Virus record (IMG/VR): IMGVR_UViG_3300021326_000002
DNA: 35,178 nucleotides
DNA from: a virus
Reading direction: 5' to 3' (one strand)
Shown here: piece by piece, positions 9,776-35,178 of the stretch
How the letters are laid out: the number at the start of each line of letters is the position of its first letter
Position numbering within the stretch: position 1 is the stretch's first letter
Translations under genes and position numbers: made by a program
Notes under the pieces: model-generated
The model's database searches: none
Told to the model about the DNA's origin: nothing
Seen by the model: only the letters and a program-made list of their open reading frames with translations

Positions 9776-10408
9776 TCAATAGTCAATAAAGCGCATTTGT
9801 GCCATTACGCCCGATAATCGGCGCATAGCCTTGTCGTAAAATTCGGCGTTGATTTCCGCACCCACGAAATCAAACCCCGCATTGTAGCAGGCAATAAGGC
9901 TTGACGCACTGCCTGTGTGCGTGTCTAATATCTTGTCACCTTGATTTGCGTATTGCCCCAAAAGCCACGAATACAAGGCGACGGGCTTTTGTGTCGGGTG
10001 TATTCGGTCGGCTTCTGCGTTTACGCCGCCGAAAAACGGGTAATCAAAACATTTTGCGTTGCCGTGAAAACTTGTCCACGCTAACTCCCCGTCGGCGTAA
10101 CTTGTGACGGGCTGGTGTTTATACCAAAATACAAACTCCTTGCAGGCGGGCAACATATCCGACAAATGATTATAGCCCCAAATGATTTGATTTTTTGATA
10201 CTCTGAATAGCTCTTTGAAATAGTCGGGGGTCGGTTTAAGATCGTTTGCGTAATTTACCCCCCCGTAACGTGCAATACGGCTTGACGCCTTAAAAGCCTT
10301 TTCTATCCCGTATGGCGGGTCACAAATAGCAAGGTCGAAATATTTATCGGGGTAAGCCTGCATAAGCTGCATACAATCTATATTATATATGGTGTTCAAA
10401 TCGAACAC
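9776..10408 (-). CDS. Orphan DNA methyltransferase, N6-adenine/N4-cytosine type (210 aa, GTG start)
   Basis: Catalytic motif AICDPPYG near the N-terminus and an AdoMet-binding-like ILDTHTGSASS near the C-terminus. No adjacent restriction endonuclease gene. Confidence 0.85.
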   Translation of the reverse strand: MFDLNTIYNIDCMQLMQAYPDKYFDLAICDPPYGIEKAFKASSRIARYGGVNYANDLKPTPDYFKELFRVSKNQIIWGYNHLSDMLPACKEFVFWYKHQPVTSYADGELAWTSFHGNAKCFDYPFFGGVNAEADRIHPTQKPVALYSWLLGQYANQGDKILDTHTGSASSLIACYNAGFDFVGAEINAEFYDKAMRRLSGVMAQMRFIDY

Positions 10409-10523: not shown

Positions 10524-11099
10524 TTATGTGTCGAGAATAGCCGACGCGATCATATCGGCGGTGTGTGTATAAAGCACATTCGGATATAGCTTTATAGCGT
10601 GGTTGTAATAGTTCCAGCGTTCTTTGTCGTCGAATGCGCCCATGTGCCAGCGTATGCAAGCTATTTCCTCATCGGTCAATCTGCCGTGCAGGATATTTTG
10701 AGCAAGTATAACAGACTTTTCGCCGTGACCGTCAAGCAAGGTTTCTTTATTATAAATGTATATCGGCTTGCCGTTCTCGTCGCCAACGTACTTGTATGTA
10801 TCGCACTTGCAAAGATCGTGCAGCATACCGACAATATACGGGCTGCGTTCATTGCCCCATTTAAGCCCGAGCCTTTCGGTGAGGTTTACAAGCTGCTCCG
10901 TGACCGCCTTTGAATGGTCGAACAAGCCGCCGCTGTATGCTCCGTGAAATTTGGTTGACGCGGGAACGGTGAAAAAGCCCATTTTGTCAAGCTGTTCAAT
11001 AGCGCCTTTTTTGTCATACGGCACAAAGTTGAACGCTTTGCACATAAGCGCTTTGAATTCTTCTATGCGTATATCCTTGTTCTTCGTTGTGTCCCGCAT
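10524..11099 (-). CDS. HD-domain phosphohydrolase (191 aa)
   Basis: H...HD signature (FHGAYSGGLFDHS ... MLHDLCK). Confidence 0.7.
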   Translation of the reverse strand: MRDTTKNKDIRIEEFKALMCKAFNFVPYDKKGAIEQLDKMGFFTVPASTKFHGAYSGGLFDHSKAVTEQLVNLTERLGLKWGNERSPYIVGMLHDLCKCDTYKYVGDENGKPIYIYNKETLLDGHGEKSVILAQNILHGRLTDEEIACIRWHMGAFDDKERWNYYNHAIKLYPNVLYTHTADMIASAILDT

Positions 11100-11101
11100 A
11101 G

Positions 11102-11845
11102 TTAGTCCTCCTCGCCGCCTATTGCTTCATCAAGTATTATGCGCCCGTCGCGCGCCTGTCGGCGCGCGATCAAGATTTCATGATTGAATGTACAAGCCGG
11201 GGCGACGCCGATACTGTACGTCGCGTAGCTGTAGTTGAGCGCCCCCGACGGGTTGACGTAGCGGACGTTGCTCGCGTAGCCGACGTCACAACTCCACGGC
11301 GTAAGCGTCCATACATAGTCACTATAACGCGGTACAAGCGCCCTGTACTTGCGGTATTGGTCGCAAGATAGCAGCGTTACAAAGTCCTCGCAAGTGCCGT
11401 ATTTTGTGTCGCCGTTATCTGCCGTAAGGTCGGAACGGGTCTTGACAAGGTGCTTTGTGTTGATCTTCATGTGGTCTATGTATTCGTTATTCAGATAGCG
11501 GCGCAATTCAGATCGCGCCCAATTGTTTGACCCGTCGCCGCCCTTGTCGTTAAACTGCACGTCGTCGGCTATGTCCGCCGTGATCGCGAAATAGTCGCCG
11601 TTGTCGGTGACGTCAAGCAGAACGTACTCATAGTCGTTATAATAGAAATGGTCGCCCGGCTCGAGGTCGTAGTATTCGTCGGCTTCGTCATACTCTGTAT
11701 CGCCGATTTTACCCATTGCCGCAAGTGCAGCGTTATAAATTTCTGTTCCTATGTGGGCGAATTCCTGTAATATGTCGCTTGCTTCGCCCTCAATAACAAC
11801 TTTAACGCCGCCGAGTGCGTTTTCGTCCTTGTATGCTTTTATCAT
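11102..11845 (-). CDS. Second DGR target protein: acidic N-terminal domain plus a C-type-lectin-like variable C-terminal domain (247 aa)
   Basis: Strong RBS AAGGAGG. The C-terminus WTLTPWSCDVGYASNVRYVNPSGALNYSYATYSIGVAPAC is encoded by VR2, which matches the TR. Confidence 0.85.
   Translation of the reverse strand: MIKAYKDENALGGVKVVIEGEASDILQEFAHIGTEIYNAALAAMGKIGDTEYDEADEYYDLEPGDHFYYNDYEYVLLDVTDNGDYFAITADIADDVQFNDKGGDGSNNWARSELRRYLNNEYIDHMKINTKHLVKTRSDLTADNGDTKYGTCEDFVTLLSCDQYRKYRALVPRYSDYVWTLTPWSCDVGYASNVRYVNPSGALNYSYATYSIGVAPACTFNHEILIARRQARDGRIILDEAIGGEED
11148..11169 (-). other. GC hairpin (9-bp stem, 4-nt loop) 22 nt downstream of VR2, inside the coding sequence
   Basis: tcgcgcgcc-tgtc-ggcgcgcga; the sense-strand loop is GACA. 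Confidence 0.7.
11192..11287 (-). repeat. DGR variable repeat 2 (VR2)
   Basis: Aligns to TR 23730-23825. All 10 mismatches are at TR adenines (sense strand); there are none at the 69 non-adenine positions. Confidence 0.85.
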
Positions 11846-12617: not shown

Positions 12618-13013
12618 TCAGAACGGGCAAGGGATATGCTCGGCAAGTTCTGCCTCCAGCGCGTCAAAAGCCGCCTTTGTATTGCGGTGGTTTTTGTACG
12701 CTTTAAGCAGGCTTTCGCACATCTTATAAAGCCTTGTGTAATCGTCCAGCGTTGCCGCTGCGAACGCTTCGGCGCGTTTTGCGTCCGCCGCCCGTTCCTT
12801 TGCCCTTAACAGTTCGCCGAATTCGTCAGCGGACATATTATGTATAATTATGCGGTGTCCTGTCTGCTCGGGGTTTCTTACCCTTGACAAGCGGTTTCTA
12901 ACGCCGCCCTTTGACCGCCCCATTATTTCAGCGATCGCCGCATAGGTCTTGCCCTCGTCGGCAAGCTGCAAAAGCAGCTTATCCTCGGCGGGCGTCCATT
13001 TTGTTTCAGACAT
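12618..13013 (-). CDS. Myb/SANT-like HTH DNA-binding protein (131 aa)
   Basis: N-terminal WTPAEDKLLLQLADEGKTYAAIAEIMGRSKGGVRNRLSRV. Confidence 0.55.
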   Translation of the reverse strand: MSETKWTPAEDKLLLQLADEGKTYAAIAEIMGRSKGGVRNRLSRVRNPEQTGHRIIIHNMSADEFGELLRAKERAADAKRAEAFAAATLDDYTRLYKMCESLLKAYKNHRNTKAAFDALEAELAEHIPCPF

Positions 13014-14885: not shown

Positions 14886-16259
14886 TCATTTGAAACACTC
14901 ATGCGTACCCGACAGCAGTTTCGTTTCATCACTGCTCATCTTGTAGCGGACACGGGTCAGTATAGCGTACCAATTTTCAAGCCGTGTGTTGCGCTGGTAT
15001 CTGCCCTCGTAGTCGTGTAGTGATGTTCTATACATACCCTCGTTGATCGTACTAAGCATAGCAAGCATGACGCTTTCGGGGTGTTTCTTAACACGGTCAC
15101 GATAATCTGCGCCCTTGAGAAAAGCCTCCCAGCTATCGTATTTTTCGCTGTCAATGTCGAGGATTTCGGCGACTTCCTCGTAATCAATATCATCAAGTCC
15201 AGCCTCACCGAGAAATGCTTCCGTGATAGTCGGTATAAATTCACGATTTGCAAAGTCTTTTACAAAAGCCTTGCGCAAGTCTGCTGCCTGCTTTTCGAGT
15301 TCGCTTACCTTGCGGTCACGTTCACGCCGTCGGTCTTCCTGCCGCCGTTTTTCAGCTTCTGCGGCTTTGTCGGCTTCGGTCTGCTTGCTTGCATCGGTGT
15401 ATATGTACACCCACGCATACTCCGGCGCATCGCTGCTTATAGTGTAATACTTTGCGTCACCTGTCTGTATAAGGTCTTCAAGCTCTTCTCTTTTCTTGTC
15501 GTCGGGTTCTTTCGACGCAGTTAAATAGCCTATCTGCCGATAACCGAAACGCTTGTCGTATGGTATGCGCTTCAATCCCATTTCCTCAAGCATTACTACA
15601 TTCTTTTTCAGATTTTCGCCCGCGTTTTCCTGCGAAATGATCTGATTAACTTTCCATTTAAAATTTTGCGTTCCGATAGTTTTTAAGGCTTCATTTTTCT
15701 TTTCGGGGTCTTTTATCTTTTCAAGCTCTATGTAATCAGCAAACGTTGCTTGTCTTTCCTCTGCCTTGCGCAGTTCTTCTTGATCTAATTCAAGCAGTTT
15801 AAGGCGGTGTCTGATCGTAGTTTTGCTAAGTCCCGTTTTCTTCGCTATGCCCTCTTGCGTTTCGCCGAGGTCTAACATCATTTGAAATCCCTGCGCCTGC
15901 TCATATACGGTAAGGTCTGCACGCTGCATATTTTCAAGCAGCATTGTTGCCGCTTGCTCGCGTTCGTCCATTTCAACCACCATACACGGCACCATTTCAA
16001 GCCCTGCCGCTTTCGCCGCCGCAAGTCTGCGGTGTCCTATGATAACGGTGTAGCCGTCTGGGTCGTCCTCGTCCGGGTGCGCTGCTTCAACACCTTTACC
16101 GCCCCACACTACCGTTAAATTCTGAAATATGCCGTTTGCCTTTATGCTCTCGGCAAGTTCCGTGATGTCGCCAACGTCCCGGCGAGGGTTGTTGGGGTGC
16201 GGATAGATCATATTAACGGGTAGCTCGGTATCTCTGTACCTAACTTTCAATGAAATCAC
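14886..16259 (-). CDS. ParB N-terminal-domain (ParB/Srx-like) protein (457 aa)
   Basis: YPHPNNPRR, IIGHRRLAAAKAAG and an HTH-like GIAKKTGLSKTTIRHRL. The true start may be the TTG at 16250. Confidence 0.8.
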   Translation of the reverse strand: MISLKVRYRDTELPVNMIYPHPNNPRRDVGDITELAESIKANGIFQNLTVVWGGKGVEAAHPDEDDPDGYTVIIGHRRLAAAKAAGLEMVPCMVVEMDEREQAATMLLENMQRADLTVYEQAQGFQMMLDLGETQEGIAKKTGLSKTTIRHRLKLLELDQEELRKAEERQATFADYIELEKIKDPEKKNEALKTIGTQNFKWKVNQIISQENAGENLKKNVVMLEEMGLKRIPYDKRFGYRQIGYLTASKEPDDKKREELEDLIQTGDAKYYTISSDAPEYAWVYIYTDASKQTEADKAAEAEKRRQEDRRRERDRKVSELEKQAADLRKAFVKDFANREFIPTITEAFLGEAGLDDIDYEEVAEILDIDSEKYDSWEAFLKGADYRDRVKKHPESVMLAMLSTINEGMYRTSLHDYEGRYQRNTRLENWYAILTRVRYKMSSDETKLLSGTHECFK

Positions 16260-17427: not shown

Positions 17428-17450
17428 TAACTTACGTAATGTGTAAGTTA
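17428..17450. promoter_or_regulatory. Operator-like inverted repeat, distal copy: TAACTTACG-N5-TGTAAGTTA
   Basis: Same 9-N5-9 architecture and half-site as the copy at 17693-17715. Overlaps the 3' end of the cro-like gene. Confidence 0.4.
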
Positions 17451-17671
17451 CGTGCAAAAAAAATATTACCTGCATTCTGTGGGGGAATGTCAAGAGCCGC
17501 TACAAGTTTATACATAGCGTCCGAGGACGGCTGCGCCGTGCCTTTTAGTATCTTCCCGAGTGTAGTTCTGTCAATCCCGCTTGCTTTTGCAAGGTCAACC
17601 GTCTTAACAAAGCCCTTTTCAATCATCATTTTTCTAAGAGCGACGGTATCAGTTATAAATAAACTGCTCAT
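17432..17671 (-). CDS. Cro-like XRE-family HTH regulator (79 aa)
   Basis: HTH VDLAKASGIDRTTLGKILKG. First gene of the leftward operon, divergent from the repressor gene. Confidence 0.75.
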   Translation of the reverse strand: MSSLFITDTVALRKMMIEKGFVKTVDLAKASGIDRTTLGKILKGTAQPSSDAMYKLVAALDIPPQNAGNIFFARNLHIT

Positions 17672-17715: not shown

Positions 17716-17744
17716 ATAATAACATACTTTAATTCAGTTGTCAA
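17716..17744 (-). promoter_or_regulatory. Leftward early/lytic promoter: TTGACA, 17-nt spacer, TGT-TATTAT
   Basis: Consensus -35 (17739-17744), 17-nt spacer, extended -10 (17716-21 plus TGn). Confidence 0.6.
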
Positions 17745-18257: not shown

Positions 18258-19061
18258 ATGGCATTTAAACGCAAAACAGCTATAATTATCGTGCTTTCGC
18301 TTTCTGTTCTTGCTTCTTGTGGCAATAGCTCGGGCGGTTCTTCCACAAATCCGGCTATCAGCACGCAGGAAACATCAACCGTTACAACAACTACACAAGC
18401 GGAAATTACAACCACAACAACCGAAACAACAACTACAACAAAAGAAACAACAACTACCACAACAAAAGCGACGACTAAAGCAACTGAAACGACAACAAGC
18501 GGACATAGGTATTATATACTTAATCACAATACGGGCAAGATACATAACCCGTTATGTCACACTTTGGAGGATAGCAGCGACGAATACGAGGAATTGATTG
18601 ATATTGGTATGGATTGGGTGAACGCTAACGGTTATTCGCTGTGCAAGGTTTGTAACCCTATCGTACCGCCTACGTCAGACAATAACCCGACAACCACAAC
18701 AAAAGAATATGACCGCAACTATTATCCGTTTAGTGAACAAAAAGAGATCAAATTAAAATATGACGCTGTTCTGTATTTTGCACCCGATAAAACGTCCGAC
18801 GACTTGTATAAATTTGGTGCAGGTACAATTTTAATTGCTGTCGGTGAAACAAGCGACTTTTTCGCGGTCACTATGAATAATGAAATAGTATTCTGTGAAA
18901 AGGTTGCTGCCGAATACTATTCCGAGCCTGTCTATACTGACGCTCCGCAAACAGACCCACCGCAAACAGACCCACCGCAAACCGAGCCGCCTCAAACAGA
19001 CGTACCGCAAACAGACCCGCCACAAACAGACCCGCCACAAACGCTTGCGGTAACGGAATAA
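18258..19061 (+). CDS. Lysogeny-module lipoprotein (moron) with a Thr-rich linker, Cys/His motif, SH3b-like segment and C-terminal TDPPQ repeats (267 aa)
   Basis: Signal peptide plus lipobox LSVLAS-C. TTTTQAEITTTTTETTTTTKETTTTTT. H-x3-C...C-x2-C (HNPLCH...LCKVCNP). Seven pentapeptide repeats at the C-terminus. Confidence 0.75.
   Translation: MAFKRKTAIIIVLSLSVLASCGNSSGGSSTNPAISTQETSTVTTTTQAEITTTTTETTTTTKETTTTTTKATTKATETTTSGHRYYILNHNTGKIHNPLCHTLEDSSDEYEELIDIGMDWVNANGYSLCKVCNPIVPPTSDNNPTTTTKEYDRNYYPFSEQKEIKLKYDAVLYFAPDKTSDDLYKFGAGTILIAVGETSDFFAVTMNNEIVFCEKVAAEYYSEPVYTDAPQTDPPQTDPPQTEPPQTDVPQTDPPQTDPPQTLAVTE
18936..19040 (+). repeat. Seven tandem 15-bp repeats encoding T-D/E-x-P-Q
   Basis: The unit acagacccaccgcaa and variants were read directly, in frame with the lipoprotein ORF. 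Confidence 0.85.
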
Positions 19062-19073
19062 AGGGGCGTTATT

Positions 19074-20684
19074 ATGGCAACAAAGAATGACGATAAATTG
19101 ATAACGGGCTACATATACGCCCGCTATTCCCCCGGACCGCAACAAACCGAGGCAAGTATCGAGGGGCAAGTCCGCGAATGCAAGGAATATGCGGACCGTA
19201 ACGGCATACGCATTATAAACGTATATTCAGATAGCAAGCAGACGGGGCGCAATGACAAGCGAGCGGGCTTTCAACAAATGCTCCGTGATTGCAAGCGAGG
19301 CGGCGTGTCCGTCGTGCTGGTATGGAAATTAGACCGTTTCGGGCGCAATCGTGCAGAAATAGCACAAAACCGCGCTTTGCTGAAATTGTCGGGCGTCAAG
19401 GTCGTTTCCGCTATGGAGCATATACCCGAAACGCCCGAGGGCATTATCCTTGAAAGTGTCCTCGAGGGTATGGCTGAATACTATTCCGCTAACCTTGCGG
19501 AAAATGTAAAACGTGGGTTAAAAGAAAACGCCCTGCAATGCAAGGCGAACGGGGCGGGGCAAAGTTTAGGCTATGTTGTCGGTGATGATCGGCGGTACAA
19601 GATAGAGCCGAGCGAGGCGGCTATCGTCAAGCGGATATTTACCGAATACGACGACGGCGCAAAGATCGCGGACATTTGGCGCGGGCTTGTGGCTGCCGGG
19701 GTAAAGACAAAACGCGGCAAAGAGTTTACACAATACGGGATAGCGCGTATTTTAAGCAACCGTGCGTATATAGGCGAATACCGATACGGCGACATTGTAA
19801 CGCCCGGCGGTATGCCCCGCATTATTGACGACGATCTATTTGAACGCGTGCAGGCGCGACGGAATGCGGGCAAATCCGCGCCGACGCGGCGGAGTACAAG
19901 CTGTGACGTTGATTTTCTGCTTACGGGTAAGTGCGTTTGCGGCTGCTGTAAAGGCACAATGCGCGGCACGTCGGGAACGGGCAAAAGCGGGCATAAGTTC
20001 TATTATTACGCTTGCCACAACAAAATATACAAGCACGCTAAATGTACCAAAAAGAACGTTAATAAAGAATGGCTCGAGGGCGAGGTTACGCGCTTGACCG
20101 TCGAATATATCTTGACCGACGAAATAATAGACTTTATCGCCGAAAAGGTCATAGAGGTGCAGGTTGCCGAACAAGCGGACAAATCAATGTTACAATACTA
20201 TGAAAACGAATTAAAGGAAACGCAACGCGCCTTGAATAACATTGTAAAGGCTATCGAGGACGGGCTTGTAACGTCCAGCACAAAAGCCCGCTTGTTTGAG
20301 TTAGAGGAACGCAAAGCCGCGTTAGAAATCAACATTGAAAAAGAGAAAATACAATACCCGCCCCTCGACAAAATGCAAGTTGTGTATTTCTTGCAGCGCT
20401 TCAAGGGCGGCTCGGTTGATGATAAGGAATACCAACGGCAAATAATAGACCTGTTCGTCAATCGCGTGATCGTGTACGACGACAAGATCACTATTACATA
20501 CAACGTCAGCGGCGAACACAACGAATTGACCGCCGATATTATAGAAAAGGCTGCAAATTCGGCGGAGTCGGGGTGTTCGACTAAATACACGTCAAGTCCA
20601 TCATTTGCAGAAAAGTCGAACACTGTTACAATATTCTTTGTCGGTGGACTTTTCGGAATAACCGTAAAAACCCGCAAGGCGTAA
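19074..20684 (+). CDS. int: Large serine recombinase (integrase) (536 aa)
   Basis: Resolvase-type N-terminus YIYARYSPGPQQTEASIEGQ...VLVWKLDRFGRN, a recombinase domain, a Cys-rich zinc ribbon (CVCGCCKG...) and a coiled coil. Confidence 0.9.
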   Translation: MATKNDDKLITGYIYARYSPGPQQTEASIEGQVRECKEYADRNGIRIINVYSDSKQTGRNDKRAGFQQMLRDCKRGGVSVVLVWKLDRFGRNRAEIAQNRALLKLSGVKVVSAMEHIPETPEGIILESVLEGMAEYYSANLAENVKRGLKENALQCKANGAGQSLGYVVGDDRRYKIEPSEAAIVKRIFTEYDDGAKIADIWRGLVAAGVKTKRGKEFTQYGIARILSNRAYIGEYRYGDIVTPGGMPRIIDDDLFERVQARRNAGKSAPTRRSTSCDVDFLLTGKCVCGCCKGTMRGTSGTGKSGHKFYYYACHNKIYKHAKCTKKNVNKEWLEGEVTRLTVEYILTDEIIDFIAEKVIEVQVAEQADKSMLQYYENELKETQRALNNIVKAIEDGLVTSSTKARLFELEERKAALEINIEKEKIQYPPLDKMQVVYFLQRFKGGSVDDKEYQRQIIDLFVNRVIVYDDKITITYNVSGEHNELTADIIEKAANSAESGCSTKYTSSPSFAEKSNTVTIFFVGGLFGITVKTRKA

Positions 20685-22534: not shown

Positions 22535-22705
22535 AAATTATAATAATAGTCTGTCATGCTTGCGATCAGCTTGTAGCAATCGCCCTTTGACGCGTGAGCA
22601 ACCCAGCTTTTGAAACATTCGTCAACGTCCTTGCGGCTCATTAACCCCGCCTTGCAGCGGGAAACAAGTTTCTTTAGCTTTCGACGTTCACGCGTTACCT
22701 TTTTT
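22519..22705 (-). CDS. RT C-terminal (thumb-like) segment, readable only in the +1 frame after the A6 run at 22700-22705
   Basis: My translation is KKVTRERRKLKKLVSRCKAGLMSRKDVDECFKSWVAHASKGDCYKLIASMTDYYYNLWEVL, with its stop at 22519-22521. It would restore an RT of about 350 aa. Confidence 0.6.
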
Positions 22706-23572
22706 AGGCAATACGCGCATTACCACTTTACCCGAGGGCGTCAGCCTAAAACTAAAGCCCATAAAATGTAACGGTTGTGTTATCGGGAAAATGTGCGTTT
22801 TCTTCTTACTCAACTGCAAGCCGAGCGCGGCTAAGTGGTTTTTGATTTGTTCACGGCAAGCCCGCAAATATTCTTTGTCGGGGTGTATCAAAATAAAATC
22901 GTCCATATATCGCACATAGCCTTTTATGTGCAAGGCTTCTTTTATATAATGGTCGAGGTCGTCGAGGACGGCTAATTGTATAAGCTGCGTTACTTGTGAG
23001 CCGAGCCCCATACCCTTTGACGGGTCGCTGCCCTGCGTAAAACTGTTTACAATGCGTTCAACCTCGCCTAACGCCCAACTATCTTTGATGCGCTTTTGAA
23101 CGGCTGCACAAGCGACTATGTGCGGCGTGCTGCCGAAATAGTCGGATATATCGCATTTGAGCACATAGCCGTTACAACCGTATTTGCGGTAATGTCTTTG
23201 TAAATGGCATTTCAAGCGGTTTCGTGCAAAGTCTGTGCCTTTGCCGACTTGACAAGCGGCATTGTCGTAAATGAACGACTTTGAAATGTTTTCAGTTAGG
23301 TAATTATCGCATAAAGACCGTTGAAATACGCGATCTTTTATTCTTGTACTCACAATTACCCTCCTTTTCGGCTCGGTGATCGTGAATACCGTGTATTTGC
23401 CTATCTGATATTTGCCGCTTAACAATTCGTCTTTGAGCAAACAACAATTTACCAAGCCGTTTTTAACAAAGCCTGCCGCACTGTCTTTCCACATTATGCC
23501 GCGTTTACATTTGAGCATAGCCGCGTAAAGACTTTCAAACGAGCATACCGTTAATTTTACATTATCATTCAT
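22688..23572 (-). CDS. DGR reverse transcriptase, main ORF (294 aa as sequenced; apparently truncated by a frameshift)
   Basis: Motifs KRRVIVSTRIKDRVFQ, DISDYFGS, GLGSQVTQL (DGR-type (I/L)GxxxSQ-like) and YMDDFILIH. Confidence 0.85.
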   Translation of the reverse strand: MNDNVKLTVCSFESLYAAMLKCKRGIMWKDSAAGFVKNGLVNCCLLKDELLSGKYQIGKYTVFTITEPKRRVIVSTRIKDRVFQRSLCDNYLTENISKSFIYDNAACQVGKGTDFARNRLKCHLQRHYRKYGCNGYVLKCDISDYFGSTPHIVACAAVQKRIKDSWALGEVERIVNSFTQGSDPSKGMGLGSQVTQLIQLAVLDDLDHYIKEALHIKGYVRYMDDFILIHPDKEYLRACREQIKNHLAALGLQLSKKKTHIFPITQPLHFMGFSFRLTPSGKVVMRVLPKKGNA

Positions 23573-23728: not shown

Positions 23729-23845
23729 CACAATCCGGGGCGACGCCGTTACTGTTCGTCGCGTTGTTGTTGTTGAGCGCCCCCGACGGGTTGACGTTGC
23801 GGACGTTGTTCGCGTTGCCGACGTTCGGGGAACGCAACCACCAAT
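23729..23845 (-). repeat. DGR template repeat (TR), 117 nt, 28 adenines on the sense strand
   Basis: Rich in AAC codons in the VR reading frame (NVGNANNVRNVNPSGALNNNNATNSNG). Identical to VR1 and VR2 at every non-adenine position. Confidence 0.9.
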
Positions 23846-23860
23846 GATAGCGTTTTACAA

Positions 23861-24280
23861 TTATTGCCCTGCTGCTTTGTCGTGCTTCTCGATCTCGGCT
23901 TTACGCCAATTCCTGATTAGGTTTTGCACGTCGTATATAAGCCGCGTCCAATGTTCAACGCGTGCGGTTTCAAGGCTATATGTGCGGTATGCAATATCAA
24001 CCATACTTAACAAAGCGTATGTTTCGGCGAGTGCCTGCGTCTGATAGCGCTTTCTTAATATGTAGTCTGTATCGTCCCGCACAAATACGGAATTAGCCAT
24101 ATTAACGCCGTTGTTGATATTCATTGCACTTTCGACAATCTTACTTGTCAAGCACCAACGGTAACGTTTAGGGAACGTCTTTTCGTTCGCGCAAATCTTC
24201 AACGTATATTCCGCAAGGTCGCGGGCTTTTGTGATAACTACAAGTTTACCCTCGCTTTGCTTTGATTTTACAACCGACAT
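23861..24280 (-). CDS. avd: Accessory variability determinant (Avd), four-helix-bundle protein (139 aa)
   Basis: Size, basic character and the FPKRYRWCLTSKIVESAMNINNGVNMAN motif. Located between the target gene and the TR. Confidence 0.8.
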   Translation of the reverse strand: MSVVKSKQSEGKLVVITKARDLAEYTLKICANEKTFPKRYRWCLTSKIVESAMNINNGVNMANSVFVRDDTDYILRKRYQTQALAETYALLSMVDIAYRTYSLETARVEHWTRLIYDVQNLIRNWRKAEIEKHDKAAGQ

Positions 24281-24292
24281 ATTAGCCTCCGT

Positions 24293-24312
24293 TCCGCCCC
24301 TATCGGGGCGGA
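24293..24312 (-). other. GC hairpin (8-bp stem, 4-nt loop) 18 nt downstream of VR1
   Basis: tccgcccc-tatc-ggggcgga; the sense-strand loop is GATA. Lies between the target stop codon and the avd RBS, with no U-tract after it. Confidence 0.7.
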
Positions 24313-24319
24313 TTTTAGT

Positions 24320-25732
24320 TTAGATGATTACACAAGCCGGGGCGACGCCGAAACTGTACGTCGCGACGTTGCTGTTGAGCGCCCCCGACGGGATGACGCT
24401 GCGGACGACGTACGCGTTGCCGACGAACGGGGAACGCAACCACCAATATTTAGCCGCCCCGGCGCGATACTTGATACGGTTAGTGTCTGCCCCCGTACCC
24501 GCTGCCGCAAGGTCTGAATAATTGGAATAGTACGCGTATGCCTTGCCCTCGCCGCCTGCGATCTCGTTACCCGTGTACGCCTCTGTACGCGAAATCAAGA
24601 ACACTTTTTCGTCGGTTTCCACCGAGCCGCCGCCGTCCGAAACGTTGTTCAGCGCGGTTACTTTCTTAACCTTACCCAGCACGGCGACGAATTCGGGGTC
24701 AACGCCAAACAAAAAGCCTGCTGTTGTTGCAGCCCAAGAGGGCGGACGATCAAACTTTGTCTGCGGCGTCCATACCGAGCCCGCCGCCTTGCTGCTGTTG
24801 ATATACTGCCGCATAGCACTTTCAACGTAGTTGTTTGAACCGTAGCGGACGCGCTGAATACTGTTGATGTTGTTAGCTGCGTCCCCTGCGGTTGTAAGCT
24901 GCCCGAGGTTAGTTCCTGTTGTGCCGGACGATACGGGCACACTTTCAATAGCTGTTGTTGCAGAGGCAGACGCCCAGCTTGATACTTTTGCGGCGCTTGC
25001 CTGCGCATTGTAGCCCCAAGAGAACGTAAGCACGCCCTTTGCTGGTACGTCCTGCGTCAGCGTAAACTGATAGCCCGTGTCTTTGTAAGTGTTATATGTT
25101 GCGTCATACGTCGGGTCTATCGTAAAATAGTAATTTCCTGCAACAAGCCCGTTTTCTGCGTAGTAGAACGCCTCGGCGGCGTCATACTGTAACTCAGCTA
25201 TGCAGTCGTGCAGCTGCAATGTCAAGCTGTGTTCAAACTGTGTGTCGCTCGGTGCGTCATGATCTATGCCGATAACGTCAAATGTCAGCTTTGCGGCGGT
25301 TTCGTGGACTATAACCGCGTCGCCGTGTGCAGGCGTTCCCGTAACGGTTATGCCGTATGCTGCAAGCTGTACGGGCGCGTCGTTGTAGTGCCATTCTGCG
25401 CCGTTGTAAACGAATTCATAGTCGCCGCCGTGTACAACGCCGACGGCTGCTATAAACGCGTCAGCGTTGACCGTAGCCGCCGTAATGCCCGCGCTGGTGT
25501 CGGGGTCTGTGTTGCCGACGGTTGCATTTATCGCGGTTTCCTTTTCGGCTATGATCTGATCGCCGATATGGAAAAAGTGCGACGCAAGCCCCGCCCTTAC
25601 GATCGCCTGCACGTCCTTAAAGCTGGTGATGTTGTAGCCGCCCGTATTGGCTGCGATCGCTGCGCACGACTTTGCGATCTGCTGCATTGTGCTGTCTTTC
25701 ACAAGGTCAATATCAATGATAGGGTCAGACAT
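24320..25732 (-). CDS. Primary DGR target: receptor-binding / tail-fibre tip protein with a C-type-lectin-like variable C-terminus (470 aa)
   Basis: Last large gene of the tail-fibre module. The C-terminus YWWLRSPFVGNAYVVRSVIPSGALNSNVATYSFGVAPACVII is encoded by VR1. Confidence 0.85.
   Translation of the reverse strand: MSDPIIDIDLVKDSTMQQIAKSCAAIAANTGGYNITSFKDVQAIVRAGLASHFFHIGDQIIAEKETAINATVGNTDPDTSAGITAATVNADAFIAAVGVVHGGDYEFVYNGAEWHYNDAPVQLAAYGITVTGTPAHGDAVIVHETAAKLTFDVIGIDHDAPSDTQFEHSLTLQLHDCIAELQYDAAEAFYYAENGLVAGNYYFTIDPTYDATYNTYKDTGYQFTLTQDVPAKGVLTFSWGYNAQASAAKVSSWASASATTAIESVPVSSGTTGTNLGQLTTAGDAANNINSIQRVRYGSNNYVESAMRQYINSSKAAGSVWTPQTKFDRPPSWAATTAGFLFGVDPEFVAVLGKVKKVTALNNVSDGGGSVETDEKVFLISRTEAYTGNEIAGGEGKAYAYYSNYSDLAAAGTGADTNRIKYRAGAAKYWWLRSPFVGNAYVVRSVIPSGALNSNVATYSFGVAPACVII
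24331..24447 (-). repeat. DGR variable repeat 1 (VR1), 117 nt
   Basis: 14 mismatches to the TR, all at TR adenines (14 of 28). The other 89 positions are identical. Confidence 0.9.
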
Positions 25733-26160: not shown

Positions 26161-26829
26161 TTAAAGATCATATACATAAGCGTGCGGCGCGCCGTCCTTT
26201 ATCCTCAACTTGACAATGTACGTTGTGTTGGTGTCAAGGTTTTTGAGCGCAAGCCCGTCTATTGCGTCGCCTACCGCCTCGGCGGCGGCATTTGCCCGGG
26301 CGGCTGCTGTGTTTGCTGTTCCCGCCGCCGTGTTCGCCGTGCCTGCTGCCGTATTGGCATTTGCGGCGGCTGTGTTTGCTGTTCCCGCTGCCGTATTGGC
26401 TATGTCTACCGCGTCGTCAGCTTCGCGGAGCGCGGCTTCAAGTATGGTGAATTCGTCGCGGCTTTCTATCTCGGTATCAGATATTGCAGACTTTTCAATG
26501 CGTAGATAGAAAATAAAGGTCGTCAATATCTGTGTACCCTTATATAGCCCGATCTCGGCTATTGCCACGCCCGGGACGGCTAACGCCTGCGAGGTCAGTT
26601 CCGCCGTAACTGTATTGCCGCTTACTGTCGCCGCGTTGTATATGGCGGTGTTGTCGGGTTTTAGGACGCGTATTCGTGCCGTTGTGCCGCTGTCAAGCGT
26701 GTACGCTGCGCCGCTTTCAAGCAGCGTTACCGCAACATAGCGCGTTCCCTTGTCGCCCTGCTTTGCGTAGACCGTCGGCGGCGAGTTGTTCAAGGCAATA
26801 TCAAGTTTTATTTCGGTCGTTGTCTGCAT
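26161..26829 (-). CDS. BppU-N-like baseplate/fibre protein with an Ala-rich heptad repeat (222 aa)
   Basis: N-terminal IKLDIALNNSPPTVYAKQGDKGTRYVAVTLL... pattern, and ANTAAGT-type repeats at aa 144-184. Confidence 0.6.
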   Translation of the reverse strand: MQTTTEIKLDIALNNSPPTVYAKQGDKGTRYVAVTLLESGAAYTLDSGTTARIRVLKPDNTAIYNAATVSGNTVTAELTSQALAVPGVAIAEIGLYKGTQILTTFIFYLRIEKSAISDTEIESRDEFTILEAALREADDAVDIANTAAGTANTAAANANTAAGTANTAAGTANTAAARANAAAEAVGDAIDGLALKNLDTNTTYIVKLRIKDGAPHAYVYDL

Positions 26830-27203: not shown

Positions 27204-30200
27204 TCAAACCGCCCTTTCTGCTTCAAGTGCTGTTATACGCCCCTCGAGGTGCTTGACATAAGCAAGCAGGGGCGAAATAAATTCTTCGTACCTTAACGCG
27301 TATTCGCTGCCGTCGCCACCCACGTCAACAAATGCCGCAAATTCCGACGTGTCAATGCCTGCTGCCGTCATAGCTTGCAGGACGTTTTGAGCGATAAAGC
27401 CCGTATGTGTGCGCCCCGACAAAGCTATATCGGCGTTGTATCGGAATGATACGGGGTCAATTGCCTTTATCATTTGCAAATACTTGTCCGCAAGCGGCGT
27501 TATATCCTGCTTGTGTCGGCTGTCGGACGATACCGCAACGGGGCTGCCGTTGGCGTAGATGTTCGAGCCGACGAGCTTCAAGGGGAGTTGATTCATACCT
27601 ACATATAAAGCATCGTTGTTTACCCACCTAAACGCAATTGTACCTGTGCAAGTTATGCCGTAGCCGTCGTCAACATCGACGTATCCGCCCCGTACATATA
27701 CGCTTGCGTTTTCATGCCACGTTGGCGCATAGTGATATGTTGTTCTATGGTGCTTTATGACGCCGCCGCCGTCTAAGTGTATATCGCCGCCAGCGTTGAT
27801 ATACAACGGGCAAGAGTTGACGCCAATTCCAAGCCATAAGCCCGAATTTGACACGCCCCCGTCGCTGTCGGCATATCTTAACCCGATATTGCCGCCCCAT
27901 GCAACACCTACATTATTGATAAAATTTACACTCGATCTGAATTGACCTGCAAACTTAACGCTATCAACAAAATAGTGTCTGCAATCAAACTGATCGTACC
28001 CGTCGCCGTCAAGGCTCATGTAATAATAGCCGTTAATTGTATTGTTCATGGCGCGCCCGAACATTAGTCCGTGATAATTGGTTGACGCTAAAAAGCCAGT
28101 TCGTGTTAAACTGCCTTGATGTACAGGGACAATAACTGATACTCTGCTGTTGTCGTAATAGGTTTCTATCTGTCCGCTTGTCATCTTCGTTCTATACCCT
28201 GTCGTGCCGCCCGAGGTTACACTACCCGTCATCGTAGCATTTGACATTGTAGCATTTCCGTTTGCGTCAAGCCTGAAATTGCCCGTTGTAATGATAAGCC
28301 GCCCGGCTGTTAGCGATATTGTGTCGGAGCTTTGGTTGATCTCTGATACAACGTCGCCGCTTGATACTTTAAGGCTTATATTATTAGCGTTCTGCGTGAT
28401 CTGCGTTTGCAGCTTGTTTGTAATAAGCGATAATGTTTTCTGATAGACCCACGACGAGCCGTTAGACAAGTACAAATAACCGTTATTCTGATTGAGGTAA
28501 TATTTGCCGTTATTGCTTGCGGCTGCATATCCTGCCGCGGCTGGTGTGCCGTATCCGTATAAATTCACGGTGTCGCTTGATGTGTCGTACTTGCTTTGTG
28601 CCTTACTTACGGTCGATAATATGCCGTTTTCGGAAACGCTTATGCGGCTGTCGGTTTCGGTTTTGGTGTAATAGTCGTTGCTTAACTTTGTATTAAAGCT
28701 AAGTGTCAAGCCGTTTGCGCTTGTGGTGATCGCTGTGTCGGTTTCTGTTTTGGTGTAGTAGCCGCCGAGCTTATCGTTAGTATAATCGTTAGCGTCAGTT
28801 ATAGCCCCGTCTATCAAATTCCCTGTTTCGGTCTTTGTGTAGACTTGCAGCATAATACTATTTGCGCTTGCGGTTATTTGGCTGTTCGTTTCGGTTTTAG
28901 TATAATACCCTGTCAATTTGTTGTCGGTGTAGTCGTTAGCGTCGTCTATTGCGTCGCTTACCGCGTTGCTTATCTGTGTGTTGGTCTGTGTTTTGGTGTA
29001 GACTTGCAGCATTATATTATTAGCGCTTACCGAAATTTTACTATCCGTTTCAGACTTTGTGTAATAGCCGCCTAACTGTGCGTCGGTGTAGTCGTTAGCG
29101 TCACTTACTGCGCCGTCAATCAAATTACCCGTTTCGGTCTTTGTATAGACTTGCAGCATTATATTGTCCGCCGTCTGCTGTATCAGCGTTTGCGAACGTG
29201 TTTCCGACGCGCTTATAGCGTCGGTGTAGCTGTTTGTAATGCTGCTGCGCAATTCTTCATCAGCGACGGAGAATTCTTGTTCAACGGTTTCTTGTGCGCC
29301 GCTTATGGCGTCGGTGATCTGCTGCTTAAAGCCTGCTGAAATGGCGTTAGCCTGCACGCTGTCAGCGCGTAGCAATGCGCCGTTAAGTGTACCCGCTGTT
29401 ATGAAATCGGCTACAATAGCGCCGTTCATAGTCATTGCAAGCCCGTATGTGCCATTATAACCCGTTGACGAATAGCCAAGCCCCGCCGAGTTCCAGCGCC
29501 ACACATGGACGGCGGTTTCTATGTCGGGCGTGTCCATTATCAAAATTTCCTGTGGGTGCTCTGCGGGGTGCAATACCACATAGCCGCCCGAATTGCCCGT
29601 TATAAGCGCGGTCGCTTCGTCAATAGCCTGTCGCCATTCTGCCGTAGCATTTGCAAATCCCTCGCGCACAACGGTTGCAAGGTCGTTCAACGCCTTTTCC
29701 TGTTCGAGCACGGTATCGGCAAAGCTGCTGCGTGCCTCGCCGAGTTCGACGCTTTTATATTTTTCGTTCAAGGTGTCGTAAACTGTCTTAATGACCTTTG
29801 CTTTTGTGGATATACCCAGCTTGACAAAACGTACTGTTACAACATCGCAAAGCTGTACGCGTTCGAGGGGCGCTATGTCCTTGTATTCTTCGGTTTGCCA
29901 TAAGGATATAAACGACGCTTGTATATTTACTTTGGGCGTTCCGAGTTCTTCGTGCGCCGCAATATACGCCGTTGCCTTGTTCCTTAAAGCCTGCTCGGTA
30001 ATTTCTTCGTTATCCCCGAATGTGTCCGACAAATTGATTATTGCCGCCTTTTGGTGTCCGACATTGCCCGCGATCGTAAGCGGTAATACCTTTTCTTCGA
30101 GCGTTACAACAATGTCGCTGCTTTCGGTGTTACCGTTCGCGTCGGTGGTTTCCTCGGTGTATATAGCATACGGGAATATATGTGTATAGGTTTCTGTTAT

Positions 30201-31528: not shown

Positions 31529-34383
31529 TATCCGAATACAACTCCCTTTCGTCTTATTTTGCTTTCGATCTTATACATGATAAGGTCTATAAAGTCGTCA
31601 ATGTCCTTTTCGGTCTTGTTTTCTATCTTGTCGATATTAACCGAAACGTCAATGTTAATGCTCGGCTTGCCCGCGTCGGTCGTCGGCACTACAATTTCGC
31701 GTACCGCCTGCCGTATGTAGTCAAGTAATACGCTTATAGGTGCGACGGCTTCCTCGCCTGCCTCGCCGCCTACCTTTGCCGTGCCTGCTTCGGGGTCAAT
31801 GTCAAATACGGTCGGCTTTTTCATTACCGCGCCTTTTGCGTACCATTCAATACCCAGCGACGGGATAGAGCCCTCGAGCAAGTCACCCAAGCTCCAGCCG
31901 GACGGGCTAATAGCAAAGTGCGGTAATTTGATTTGCGGCAACGATACATTGAAATTGAAAAATGACTTTATTTTGTCAATGGCATTTTTTACAACGTTTC
32001 GCACATTGTCGAAAATGTTTGTAAACGTCTGCTTGATATTGTTCAAGCGGTTTGTTACGGTGTTTTTGACGTTGTCAAGCCCGCTTGTAATGGTTGTTTT
32101 TATGGCGTTTATTATATTGCTTACTTTGTTTTTGATGTTGTCAAAAATACTTGTAAACTTCTGCTTGATATTGTCAAGGACATTTGAAACAACATTCTTG
32201 ATAGCGTTTAAGCCGTTAGTAAATATCTGCTTGTAAAAATTAAAGATATTCCCGAAAAACTGCTTAATGTCGTTAAAGATTTTTGTTACAATGTCCTTTG
32301 CCTTATTAAACGCCTCGTCCCAATTGCCTAAAAAGACGTCAAGTATTATTTCGACGATCTTATTAAACAATTCAACGGCTTTTTCATAATAGCCCTTTAA
32401 GGTGTCGGCGCAAAAGGCTAAAAACGTCATAATACCGTCTATCGCGGGTGTAAGTATGCTTACAACCGTTTCGACGATCTCCATTATAAACGCTATCAGT
32501 TCGGGCAAAATAGCGCTTATCAAGTCCATAAGCGGCGTTATCAGAATTAACAGAATGTCTAATAACGGCTGGATAACCGGCAATAGCTGCATTAACAAGT
32601 CTGTAAGTATCGGCAATACGCTTTCAATTATCTGCGTAAGCAGCGGCATACATTCTTGTATTAGCTGAATGATAACGGGTAATATTGCGTTTACTATTTC
32701 GGTTATCGTCGGCATTAACGCGTCGATAAGCTGCACGATCACGGGCAATATAGCCTCGATAATCTGCATAGCAAGCGGCAATATTGTATTTATCAAGTCG
32801 ATAAGTACGGGCAATACCGCGTCAATTATCTTTGTAAGCAGGGGCAAAACGGACTTGATAATGCTAACGAGCGACGGCAACAACGTTTTTATAAGGCGTG
32901 TTACGATCGGTAATATAGCGTTTATCAAATCGACAATGACGGGCAATACCGCGTCTATTATGTCGGTCAGTATCGGCAATATTTCCTCGATAACATCTAC
33001 CAATAGCGGCAAGATAGTTTCAACCACTTTCAAAAGCGGCGGTATTATCTGCTGTATCAGCTTAACGATAACAGGCAGCACCGCAGAAATAAGGCTTTGC
33101 GATGGCGGTAATAGCGTTTGTATCAAATCAAATAGTATCGGGAATACTGTATTAGTCAGTTCGATAAGCGGCGGCAATATGCCGTCAAATACGCTTGTCA
33201 GTATTGGAATAAATCCCTCGATCAGCTTTTGAACATTCGGTAAGTTGTCGGTAATAACTTCAATAGCCTGCTCAACTATCGGTATCAATGCTGTACCGAT
33301 CTGCTGCTTGATAAGTGCAAAATTGTTTTTTAGCTTGCCGAGCTTAGCATTGAGGGTGTCGCCCATTGTTTCAAACGCCTTTTGCGTTGCACCTGCCGAG
33401 GTCTGCATTTCGCCGAGAATGTTTGCGAAATCCTCTCCGCCGTCCTTGACCAGCGTCATTGCTGCTGCGCCTGCAAGCTGCTTGTTGAACATATCTTTAA
33501 GCGTCAAGCCTGCGTTGCCTGCATAATCATTAAGCATATTAAGCACATCGGCGGTGCTTTTGCCCTCGGCTTGCAGTTCCGCAAAGCTCTTGCCGGATAT
33601 TTCGCGTAAAGCCTTATCGGCTTTTGAGCCTGTTTTTGACAGTTCGCCGAGCATAGAGTTGATCTGCGTACCTGCCTGCGCTGTTGCGACGCCGTTTTTT
33701 GTCAGTACGGCGTACTGCGTTGACAGGTCGTCCATAGCAACGTTAGCACCCGACGCAATAGGTATCGTTTGACCTAATGATGCCGCTAGTTCGTCAACGG
33801 TAGTTTTACCGAGGTTCTGCGTAGTGATAAGCATATCCGAAATGTCGGTTGCTTTGTCGGCTTCTAAGCCATACGCATTAAGGGCTGTCGTAAGTACATC
33901 AACGGCGGTTGTTGTATCAGTAAAACCGCCCTTTGCCAGCTTAACGGCATTCGTTGTAAATTCTACTGCGTCAGCTTGATCTACCGAGGCAGATATAGCC
34001 GAGTATGTCGCATCGGAAAAATCAGAAAAAGCAACACCGGTTTCGCCGGAGGCTTTTATGATCTGGTCGTAAATGCCCTGTATATCTTCTTCCGTACCCG
34101 ATAATAGCGTTTTAACTTTCGCAAACGCCGTTTCTTGTTCGGCTGCGTCAGTAGCCATTTTATAAGCAGCGCCGCCGAGGGCGGTTGCAGCCGCAACGGT
34201 CATTGTTCCCATTGTTACGGCTGCATTGCCTATAGTGCTAAATGCTTTACCAATCTTTGAGCCTGCGCTTTCGCCCTTTTTGGTCGTTTCGTCTATGCTC
34301 TTGTCGGCTTCTTTGTTGTCAATGAATATAGTTCCAAATAGCGAAAAGATATTAGCCACGGTTGCGCCCCCTATCCGCCTCAA
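31528..34383 (-). CDS. Tape measure protein (951 aa; the true start may be the GTG at 34359)
   Basis: Largest helical protein downstream of the G/T chaperones, with 21 consecutive 11-residue repeats. Confidence 0.9.
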   Translation of the reverse strand: MRRIGGATVANIFSLFGTIFIDNKEADKSIDETTKKGESAGSKIGKAFSTIGNAAVTMGTMTVAAATALGGAAYKMATDAAEQETAFAKVKTLLSGTEEDIQGIYDQIIKASGETGVAFSDFSDATYSAISASVDQADAVEFTTNAVKLAKGGFTDTTTAVDVLTTALNAYGLEADKATDISDMLITTQNLGKTTVDELAASLGQTIPIASGANVAMDDLSTQYAVLTKNGVATAQAGTQINSMLGELSKTGSKADKALREISGKSFAELQAEGKSTADVLNMLNDYAGNAGLTLKDMFNKQLAGAAAMTLVKDGGEDFANILGEMQTSAGATQKAFETMGDTLNAKLGKLKNNFALIKQQIGTALIPIVEQAIEVITDNLPNVQKLIEGFIPILTSVFDGILPPLIELTNTVFPILFDLIQTLLPPSQSLISAVLPVIVKLIQQIIPPLLKVVETILPLLVDVIEEILPILTDIIDAVLPVIVDLINAILPIVTRLIKTLLPSLVSIIKSVLPLLTKIIDAVLPVLIDLINTILPLAMQIIEAILPVIVQLIDALMPTITEIVNAILPVIIQLIQECMPLLTQIIESVLPILTDLLMQLLPVIQPLLDILLILITPLMDLISAILPELIAFIMEIVETVVSILTPAIDGIMTFLAFCADTLKGYYEKAVELFNKIVEIILDVFLGNWDEAFNKAKDIVTKIFNDIKQFFGNIFNFYKQIFTNGLNAIKNVVSNVLDNIKQKFTSIFDNIKNKVSNIINAIKTTITSGLDNVKNTVTNRLNNIKQTFTNIFDNVRNVVKNAIDKIKSFFNFNVSLPQIKLPHFAISPSGWSLGDLLEGSIPSLGIEWYAKGAVMKKPTVFDIDPEAGTAKVGGEAGEEAVAPISVLLDYIRQAVREIVVPTTDAGKPSINIDVSVNIDKIENKTEKDIDDFIDLIMYKIESKIRRKGVVFG

Positions 34384-34692: not shown

Positions 34693-35064
34693 TTAGTCTG
34701 CACGTTTCGGCTTTACCTTGTCGTGTAGAGCACGCTTGAAAAAAACCGTCATGCCCTCGTCGTGTATGATCTCGTCGAGAACGGCGAACGTGTCAAGGTC
34801 GTTAGCCTCTTCGACGGTAACGCCCTTGTAGGCTGCTGCAAGCTCGGGCAAGAAATCCGCCACGGTGTCAAGCTGCGGGAGCAGCGCGCTAATTGCCGTT
34901 ACGGCAAGTTCGCCCGCCTTTTCGGTGGTAAGCTGCGCCAGCGCGTCCTCCTTGCTCTTTGCGTCGGTGAATATGTCCGCGTCCTTTAGGGTGTCAATTA
35001 CGGGTGTGAGGTCAAGCCTGCTTGTTATTCTCAAAAGTATCTGCAAAGATTTGATATTCAGCAT
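34693..35064 (-). CDS. Tail assembly chaperone, gpG-like (123 aa)
   Basis: Position between the major tail and tape measure genes. Acidic helical protein. Confidence 0.7.
   Translation of the reverse strand: MLNIKSLQILLRITSRLDLTPVIDTLKDADIFTDAKSKEDALAQLTTEKAGELAVTAISALLPQLDTVADFLPELAAAYKGVTVEEANDLDTFAVLDEIIHDEGMTVFFKRALHDKVKPKRAD
34738..34744 (-). other. Slippery heptamer T_TTT_TTC for programmed -1 frameshifting (G-T fusion of about 237 aa)
   Basis: The sense strand reads acg gtT TTT TTC aag, in the correct phase (X_XXY_YYZ), 15 codons before the gpG stop. Confidence 0.6.
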
Positions 35065-35178
35065 AATAAATAAACTCCTTATCTATTGATTTTTATGATT
35101 TAGGTAGTGCCGCCGCCGCTTGCAGCTTTGCGCATTTCAAAAGACGATACCTCGGTAACTTCCCACAAGTCGCCGTCG
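35052..35178. repeat. Second copy of the 127-bp terminal overlap (35100-35178 duplicates the 3' end of the major tail gene)
   Basis: Identical to bases 1-127. Confidence 0.9.

Follow-up and report, generated by a model that had tools for sequence, protein, structure and literature searches.

Two-target diversity-generating retroelements (DGRs) have been described in nd4 and nd12, where the second target, 'target 2', is a small protein made up of a DUF6273 domain with a C-type-lectin-like (C-lec) fold only (Baykov et al. 2023, PMC10743442). In Toutatisvirus, a second gene with a variable repeat (VR), of unknown function, belongs to the core genome and lies 17,480 nt from the template repeat (TR), and the DGR targets persist in phages without a DGR (iLund4u preprint, bioRxiv 10.1101/2024.10.15.618418). 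'Small DGR target proteins' have also been reported for the phages Lelie and CP11 (PMC11792537). Remote targets could, by its own statement, not be detected in the survey of Roux et al. 2021 (PMC8144416). Here, we describe a target of this kind in a viral DNA of 35,178 nt, IMG/VR record IMGVR_UViG_3300021326_000002, the whole of which is called the window below. The gene in question (11102..11845, minus strand) codes for a 247-aa protein and carries a variable repeat, VR2, at an offset of 12,538 nt from the TR of the window's DGR. An earlier note on this locus had implied that such an arrangement was new, which the reports on Toutatisvirus, nd4/nd12 and Lelie/CP11 contradict: architecture and protein family are already published, and judged by its sequence the window gene is an additional member of the small 'target 2' DUF6273 proteins known from Clostridia phages of the gut. 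In BLASTP the protein matched nd4_tgt2 with 36% identity (E 3e-24) and Toutatis gp24 with 30% (1e-14), and it is also homologous to nd12_tgt2 and the Lelie small target. Besides this homology, it has the single C-lec domain without an immunoglobulin (Ig) domain that marks the class, and its repeat is the second VR of a TR serving a larger DUF6273 target.

The repeats, the retroelement and the two targets are arranged as follows.
11192..11287, minus strand: VR2, variable repeat of the remote target, 86/96 identical to TR 23730-23825
11102..11845, minus strand: target gene 2, 247-aa small DUF6273 protein (Pfam DUF6273 38.1 bits, cut-off 23.5; phrog_9958 E 1e-50)
23729..23845, minus strand: TR, 28 coding-strand adenines, most of them in AAC codons
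22688..23572, minus strand: DGR reverse transcriptase (RT), 294 aa (Pfam RVT_1; phrog_1423 at 1.9e-79; motifs LGSQVTQ and YMDD)
23861..24280, minus strand: Avd accessory protein, 139 aa (phrog_3206 'Avd protein of DGR' 2e-16; Pfam bAvd match below cut-off)
24331..24447, minus strand: VR1, C-terminal in target gene 1; 14 differences from the TR, every one at an A
24320-25732, minus strand: target gene 1, 470 aa, DUF6273, in tail-fibre position after the BppU_N protein

When TR 23730-23825 was compared without gaps to the whole window, only three copies came up, namely the TR itself, the repeat at 11192 (86/96) and the one at 24332 (82/96). On the coding strand, the mismatches of VR2 to the TR all fall on TR adenines (10/10; 6 A>T, 3 A>G and 1 A>C). 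Adenine occupies 27 of the 96 positions and the other 69 are free of mismatches (hypergeometric P 7.5e-7), and the exact alignment thereby bears out the adenine-only pattern reported in the earlier note. The pattern is distinct from that of VR1, as had also been claimed: the 14 mismatches of VR1 lie at other positions, though in both repeats they are confined to TR adenines. TR, VR1 and VR2 share one codon register and the changes thus land on AAC codons. Only part of the TR is represented in VR2, again as stated before. Its homology to the TR stops exactly at 11287, 20-21 nt short of the end of the VR1/TR homology at 23845, and the boundary base 11287 is itself a mismatch.

Homing of the BPP-1 type requires an initiation of mutagenic homing (IMH) sequence and upstream homology, and in BPP-1 and other phage DGRs a hairpin/cruciform with a GC stem of 7-10 bp and a 4-nt GRNA loop is located 4-34 bp downstream of the VR (PMC3240598). 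The candidate counterparts in the window are these.
11192..11209, minus strand: GC-rich 3′ element of VR2 (IMH-like), GGCGTCGCCCCGGCTTGT, identical in VR1 (24332-24349)
11149..11168, minus strand: VR2 hairpin/cruciform CGCGCGCC-GACA-GGCGCGCG, 8-bp GC stem with GRNA loop, 23 nt past the VR end
24293..24312, minus strand: VR1 hairpin TCCGCCCC-GATA-GGGGCGGA, 8-bp GC stem, 19 nt past the VR1 end, just beyond the stop codon

Both hairpins fit the published rule with respect to stem, loop and distance. The TR counterpart of the IMH-like element is GGCGTCGCCCCGGATTGT (23730-23747), which has an A where the VRs have a C (mismatch at 11196; GGATTGT in the TR, GGCTTGT in the VR). As VR1 has the same C, and so have the two VRs of a relative, IMGVR 3300028805_000317, the base at 11196 is probably a fixed difference between IMH and IMH* rather than a product of mutagenesis. 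It is the single VR/TR difference within the element and sits at a TR adenine, where sequence alone cannot separate IMH* from mutagenesis plus selection; the codon concerned is a nearly invariant Ala in homologues.

The VR2 hairpin is part of the coding sequence and specifies the residues ARRQAR. It is kept in register at most homologue loci, with changes on both sides in 5/8 stem pairs. Computed over 18 distinct homologue-locus sequences, its covariation score was 0.239 as compared to 0.161 in shuffles; none of 500 shuffles reached 0.239, and slid controls were far lower. In a subgroup (L034, L041, L060, L069 and similar IMG/VR loci), the open reading frame (ORF) stops at a TGA within the hairpin loop (TTG CAC TGA CAG GTG CAG), about 25 nt past the APAC cysteine codon of the small DUF6273 gene, and the stem is retained via compensatory GCACT/GGTGC changes. 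Since the stem persists although the ORF ends in the loop, the hairpin is selected as a nucleic-acid element and not through a protein constraint. In Toutatis gp24 and nd4_tgt2, a coding-embedded hairpin was looked for at the corresponding position and not found, indicating a feature of the window subfamily and not of all small targets.

Comparison with relatives and populations adds to this. The relative 3300028805_000317 has an RT 85% and a small protein 50% identical to those of the window, and its VR2 homologue is 12.2 kb away. Its TR differs from the window TR at several non-adenine positions, and its VR2 homologue carries exactly these differences of its own TR, together with 17 mismatches at adenines only. 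Homologues at 50-99% identity share the scaffold WTLTPWSC.VG.A..VR.V.PSGAL....AT.S.GVAPACTFNHEIL, and their AAC-templated positions are hypervariable; at 85-99% identity variation is found almost only at AAC codons. Contigs from four other samples (L179-L182) equal the window over 8-20.7 kb save two bases, 11212 and 11218, both of which lie within VR2 at TR-adenine sites. The exact VR1 protein is present on 23 contigs and two VR2 variants (P0121 and P0122) on 11 contigs each, which suggests that VR2 was diversified in the window lineage while VR1 stayed fixed. VR1 sequences differ among the more distant members of the cluster. The longest contigs with the VR2 variants reach ~150 kb, indicating an integrated prophage.

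Thus, four independent lines, i.e. the cis elements, co-evolution with the TR, hypervariable AAC codons and a two-base difference restricted to VR2, argue that VR2 is an active DGR target, to which we assign a probability of about 0.97. They likewise favor independent mutagenic homing over a decaying duplicate, as the earlier note had proposed. One point weighs against this: a difference of two bases is smaller than expected from complete re-homing and needs either a short 3′ conversion tract or selection of variants. The location of both changed sites within 27 nt of the 3′ end suggests such a short tract.

By analogy to the BPP-1 paradigm, the RT (22688-23572) together with Avd would copy the TR RNA into cDNA and misread adenines. 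For homing in trans, the cDNA would need three elements in the DNA that it enters: a GC-rich IMH-like 3′ element, a GRNA-looped GC hairpin shortly downstream, and homology upstream at which the 5′ end can integrate. As VR2 has all three elements, the 3′ 96 nt of the TR can overwrite 11192-11287. In this way, about ten AAC-templated codons would be re-randomised in what is probably an exposed part of the C-type-lectin-like DUF6273 domain.

Other (pro)phages of Ruminococcus and further Clostridia (L064, L189, L214 and L216) have a TR ~7 kb upstream of the small-target VR. Their adenine mismatches amount to 13/13, 15/15, 18/18 and 23/24, respectively, and a second VR adjoins the TR, showing that the two-target arrangement recurs with different spacing. 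These four are the exceptions in a search for a TR within ±10 kb of the ~180-aa homologues, which found none at most loci; with flanks of 10 kb and a TR 12.5 kb away in the window, a missing DGR is not separable from a more distant one. A scan of GTDB genomes with exact peptides found nothing. A profile-based scan of GTDB placed the family in Clostridia (Ruminococcus, Eubacteriaceae, Acutalibacteraceae, Oscillibacter, Anaerotruncus and Christensenellaceae). It is common in prophages of cultivable Clostridia, e.g. Ruminococcus and Faecalibacterium.

An AlphaFold2 (AF2) model of the 247-aa protein, based on an alignment of 76 sequences, had a mean predicted local distance difference test (pLDDT) score of 88 and is divided into three parts.
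11702..11845, minus strand: predicted N-terminal beta-beta-alpha domain, residues 1-48, family-specific (AF2 pLDDT about 70-78)
11657..11701, minus strand: predicted disordered acidic linker, residues 49-63, 8/15 residues D/E and no K/R
11126..11656, minus strand: predicted C-type-lectin-like DUF6273 domain, residues 64-240 (pLDDT mostly 93-98, 88 at the C-terminal end)

In the model, pLDDT falls to ~56 at residues 41-50 and below 50 at residues 49-53. VR2 encodes residues 187-218, and the 29-residue tail beyond it forms two further predicted strands. The assignment to DUF6273 is supported by a PF19789 score above the gathering threshold; the annotated function of phrog_9958 is unknown. With the 247-aa model, Foldseek retrieved viral DUF6273 models at E about 1e-8. 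A fold search of the PDB gave weak lectin-like matches, the best being the C-terminal domain of Legionella Lcl (E 0.028), followed by CD23-type lectins; at the level of models these matches support the C-type-lectin-like fold class and nothing more specific. A signal peptide or transmembrane segment was sought in the protein and not found (maximal Kyte-Doolittle 19-residue mean 0.87), in line with the earlier note. The 'acidic N-terminal domain' described there needs to be modified: the N-terminal part consists of the beta-beta-alpha unit 1-48 and, after it, the disordered acidic linker 49-63, and the whole protein is acidic (pI 4.4).

The N-terminal module is exchangeable. It is absent in many ~180-aa forms, which are bare C-lec domains, has the beta-beta-alpha fold in the window subfamily and is a Lar_restr_allev zinc ribbon in P0022, P0024 and P0028 (52-59 bits, cut-off 28.6). 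In the window protein, Pfam detected no such ribbon (PF14354). Residues 1-50 gave no match in a word-indexed search. An exhaustive phmmer search brought up the family itself, a truncated form of 64 aa and, as compositional matches, three giant repeat proteins rich in Thr/Ser, and nothing beyond these; none of them pointed to a function.

The 247-aa gene is located outside the virion module, as previously pointed out, in an early/replication operon, and this placement is conserved in relatives. It is separated by 2 nt from both neighbors within the Cro-to-Rep gene string. The downstream genes and the likely start of the operon are listed below.
10524..11099, minus strand: HD-type phosphohydrolase of 191 aa, its start 2 nt beyond the VR2 gene (phrog_28876 1.6e-25; Pfam HD weak)
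9776..10408, minus strand: DNA methyltransferase, 210 aa (Pfam N6_N4_Mtase, phrog_67), no restriction partner nearby
17716..17744, minus strand: best candidate promoter for the early rightward operon, TTGACA-17-TATTAT plus a TG upstream, 11/12 (consensus match only)

The HD hydrolase and methyltransferase are thus where the earlier note had put them. The promoter-like site 17716-17744 is found upstream of the Cro-like gene 17432-17671 and ~6 kb upstream of the VR2 gene, and a consensus search listed no minus-strand terminator-like site between the two. Adjacency to the HD gene and synteny are kept in relatives at 50-90% identity. As a functional link this adjacency was dropped, since it is kept only at identities of at least 50% (4/78 distant loci, and there far away). 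The early location itself is widespread. In Toutatisvirus the small target sits among HD, methylase, regulator and Rep genes, in nd4 it adjoins polymerase-subunit, SSB and DnaC genes, and in an SPbeta-like phage it lies among DnaB, RecJ, RNA ligase and YopX genes. At 78 distant IMG/VR loci, Rep (43) and TerL (47) were encountered downstream of the small target on the same strand. Altogether, small targets occupy early/replication modules in four unrelated phage backbones, and at the loci inspected they never adjoin tail or head genes.

The window is a complete, circularly assembled genome, whose positions 1-127 are identical to 35052-35178. This exact 127-nt terminal direct repeat stems from overlap in the assembly, the genome being circular or terminally redundant. 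The genome is that of a siphovirus-like temperate tailed phage of gut or rumen of ~35 kb, and relatives were found in ruminant and other gut metagenomes and in metagenome-assembled genomes of Clostridia. The gene order along the minus strand was taken from Pfam matches on identical contigs. It starts with the Cro-like gene 17432-17671, small ORFs, a ParB-like gene (14886-16259) and a sigma/Myb-type helix-turn-helix gene (12618-13013), which is followed by three small ORFs and the 247-aa gene (11102-11845). Past this gene come the HD phosphohydrolase, the DNA methyltransferase, a Rep initiator, an activator-like protein and an HNH protein, then TerS, TerL, portal, protease and capsid, with tail genes extending across the junction. 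The BppU_N protein, the 470-aa VR1 target, Avd, TR, RT, XkdX, a holin and a GH25 endolysin complete the series. A CI-like repressor, a lipoprotein and a serine integrase are encoded on the opposite strand. With an attachment site near the integrase (19074-20684), VR2 and the DGR cassette would be ~22.6 kb apart in the integrated prophage and not 12.5 kb.

Between the CI-like repressor and the serine integrase, a 267-aa ORF (18258-19061, plus strand) codes for a predicted lipoprotein with the lipobox LSVLASC|G, a Thr-rich linker and seven C-terminal (D)PPQT repeats. These features correspond to a tandem repeat of 15 nt (18907-19041) and a repeat of 21 nt (18372-18476) in the gene, which is cargo of the lysogeny module and possibly codes for a superinfection-exclusion or surface-modifying protein. 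Repeats are also present in tail genes: the BppU_N baseplate protein (26161-26829, minus strand) has 7-residue NTAAGTA repeats and a 21-nt tandem repeat at 26282-26407, a putative 951-aa tape-measure gene has 33-nt periodic repeats (32575-33176), and a 1204-aa Prophage_tail/Peptidase_S74 tail protein has repeats of 147-159 nt (28684-29163).

What the diversified protein does is less clear-cut than the activity of VR2. The earlier note had named two options, an intracellular binder and a virion decoration protein encoded away from the structural genes. Expressed with the early rightward operon, the 247-aa protein would be soluble and acidic, and it lacks both a signal peptide and any recognisable domain for attachment to virions. 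Its role might be that of a hypervariable binder, free within the infected cell or set free by lysis, and not that of a part built into the tail. We consider the chances about even that it is a soluble non-virion binder acting in the infected cell or as a free protein. Conserved placement in the early module, the lack of an attachment domain or export signal, and the swapping of the N-terminal module are the reasons for this view, and between an intracellular binder and a decoration protein or adhesin the evidence leans modestly to the former. An intracellular binder would resemble an antibody repertoire directed against variable host proteins such as defence systems, or against cytoplasmic precursors of receptors. 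The wider proposal that small 'target 2' proteins in general are early DGR-diversified intracellular binders for counter-defence or host takeover is more tentative, and we regard it as less likely than not.

Several observations weigh against a non-virion role. To our knowledge, all phage DGR targets of experimentally shown function are receptor-binding proteins. The VR2 domain shares its fold with the tail-fibre VR1 domain, and its TR as well. Lar_restr_allev is in essence a small zinc ribbon, and its name says little about function. Promoter and terminator were called from consensus matches only, and as the whole genome save the lysogeny genes is transcribed in one direction, late read-through is possible. 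Finally, Baykov et al. 2023 proposed an Mtd-like receptor-binding role for nd4/nd12 target 2 (PMC10743442).

The strongest competitor, which we judge somewhat less probable than an even bet, accepts that VR2 is active and takes the protein for a virion-associated or extracellular adhesin or decoration, or for a lectin released at lysis. As an adhesin, it would dock on the capsid, the tail or the VR1 protein via its N-terminal module after assembly and bind host-surface or gut glycans. The DUF6273 C-lec fold and TR held in common with the tail-fibre target speak in its favor, and an exchangeable N-terminal module on a flexible linker would suit a docking adaptor. Decoration proteins may be encoded outside the structural module, as in the case of T4 hoc/soc. 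A weak second match of the protein is phrog_10993, 'Hoc-like head decoration', and hypotheses of this kind have been published for nd4_tgt2/nd12_tgt2 and the Toutatis small target (PMC10743442, bioRxiv 10.1101/2024.10.15.618418). On the other hand, the early/replication placement in four unrelated backbones, away from tail and head genes at every locus inspected, and the absence of a beta-prism, Ig or collagen-type attachment domain speak against such a role. Furthermore, the ~180-aa forms are bare C-lec domains, and the 247-aa protein has no signal peptide.

It is highly improbable that VR2 arose as a duplicate from VR1 or the TR and is now decaying, with the adenine bias as a remnant. Such a duplicate might cover only part of the TR and lie far from the cassette, as VR2 does, and one homologue (P0028, L226) is fossil-like. 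However, decay would have left mismatches among the 69 non-adenine positions, would not let the VR2 homologue track the divergent TR of the relative, and accounts neither for a difference confined to VR2 between otherwise identical genomes nor for a hairpin upheld by compensatory changes. Moreover, outside the VR the similarity between the 247-aa protein and the VR1 protein is marginal; the two target proteins are distantly related there, so that VR2 is no recent duplicate. This reading is effectively refuted. For the same reason, a recent duplication of target 1 was rejected as the origin of target 2. Even less credible is that ordinary gene conversion or recombination among three direct repeats of ~100 nt in one genome, and not reverse transcription, keeps TR, VR1 and VR2 alike, since it would homogenise repeats instead of diversifying them, would not limit the differences to template adenines in two repeats independently, and disregards the complete RT/Avd/TR cassette.

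The homologue P0028 (L226:10001-10801) lies in an SPbeta-like replication module with DnaB, RecJ, RNA ligase, YopX and an AAA_33 kinase. It has kept the IMH-like sequence GGCGTCGCCCCGG, its hairpin and PSGAL scaffold have decayed, and no TR is found within 10 kb. Its VR looks like a fossil.

With its population-level support, the window provides a clean natural case of one TR serving two unlinked targets in a small temperate phage, and it indicates that a DGR targeting hairpin can be embedded in a coding sequence and upheld there by compensatory changes. Published work assumed a receptor-binding role for the small targets. Should the 247-aa protein prove to work intracellularly, a hypervariable effector of this kind would be a first for a virus, and a single retroelement would evolve both the entry device and a counter-defence or host-takeover factor.

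Like nd4_tgt2, nd12_tgt2, Toutatis gp24 and the Lelie small target, the window protein has one C-lec-like DUF6273 domain, in which the VR lies close to the C-terminus and is followed by a short tail, and it is the second target of one TR with a larger DUF6273 target beside the cassette. In Toutatisvirus and in the window alike, the small target is remote from the TR (17,480 and 12,538 nt, respectively) and situated among early/replication genes. The window differs from nd4, Toutatisvirus and Lelie in its backbone, a 35-kb siphovirus-like temperate phage of ruminant or gut Clostridia, and in the beta-beta-alpha N-terminal domain and acidic linker, which are specific to its subfamily. Its target 1, of 470 aa, has the VR at the C-terminus and is not a tentaclin with an N-terminal C-lec domain and Ig domains, and in comparison with Toutatis gp24 and nd4_tgt2 the coding-embedded GC hairpin with a GRNA loop is found in the window gene only. 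The 247-aa protein is itself outside the tentaclin class (PMC10743442), as it has no Ig-like domain and carries its VR near the 3′ end of the gene.

With BPP-1 and its target Mtd (PMC3240598, PMC2408619), the window has in common an adenine-specific TR-to-VR copy-and-replace system with RT and Avd, a GC-rich 3′ element of the VR, a downstream GC hairpin with a 4-nt GRNA loop, and a VR presented on a C-lec fold. BPP-1 has one adjacent target, the trimeric tail-fibre tip with beta-prism and beta-sandwich domains, whereas the window target is remote, small, devoid of attachment domains and encoded in an early operon. The IMH-like element of the window differs from its TR copy at one base only. 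The 247-aa protein falls outside the class of Mtd-like tail-fibre tips, given its N-terminus of a 48-residue beta-beta-alpha domain plus disordered linker and the early location of its gene.

Cellular DGRs offer a further parallel. In the elements reported from Legionella, Treponema denticola and cyanobacteria, one TR serves several VRs too, some of them far from the RT. Some C-lec DGR targets are reported to be cytoplasmic, as in the work on STAND antigen sensors of multicellular bacteria (bioRxiv 10.1101/2023.09.22.558884), suggesting that diversification is not confined to surface proteins. These multi-target DGRs of cells are chromosomal, whereas in the window the element and both of its targets reside in a temperate phage of 35 kb.

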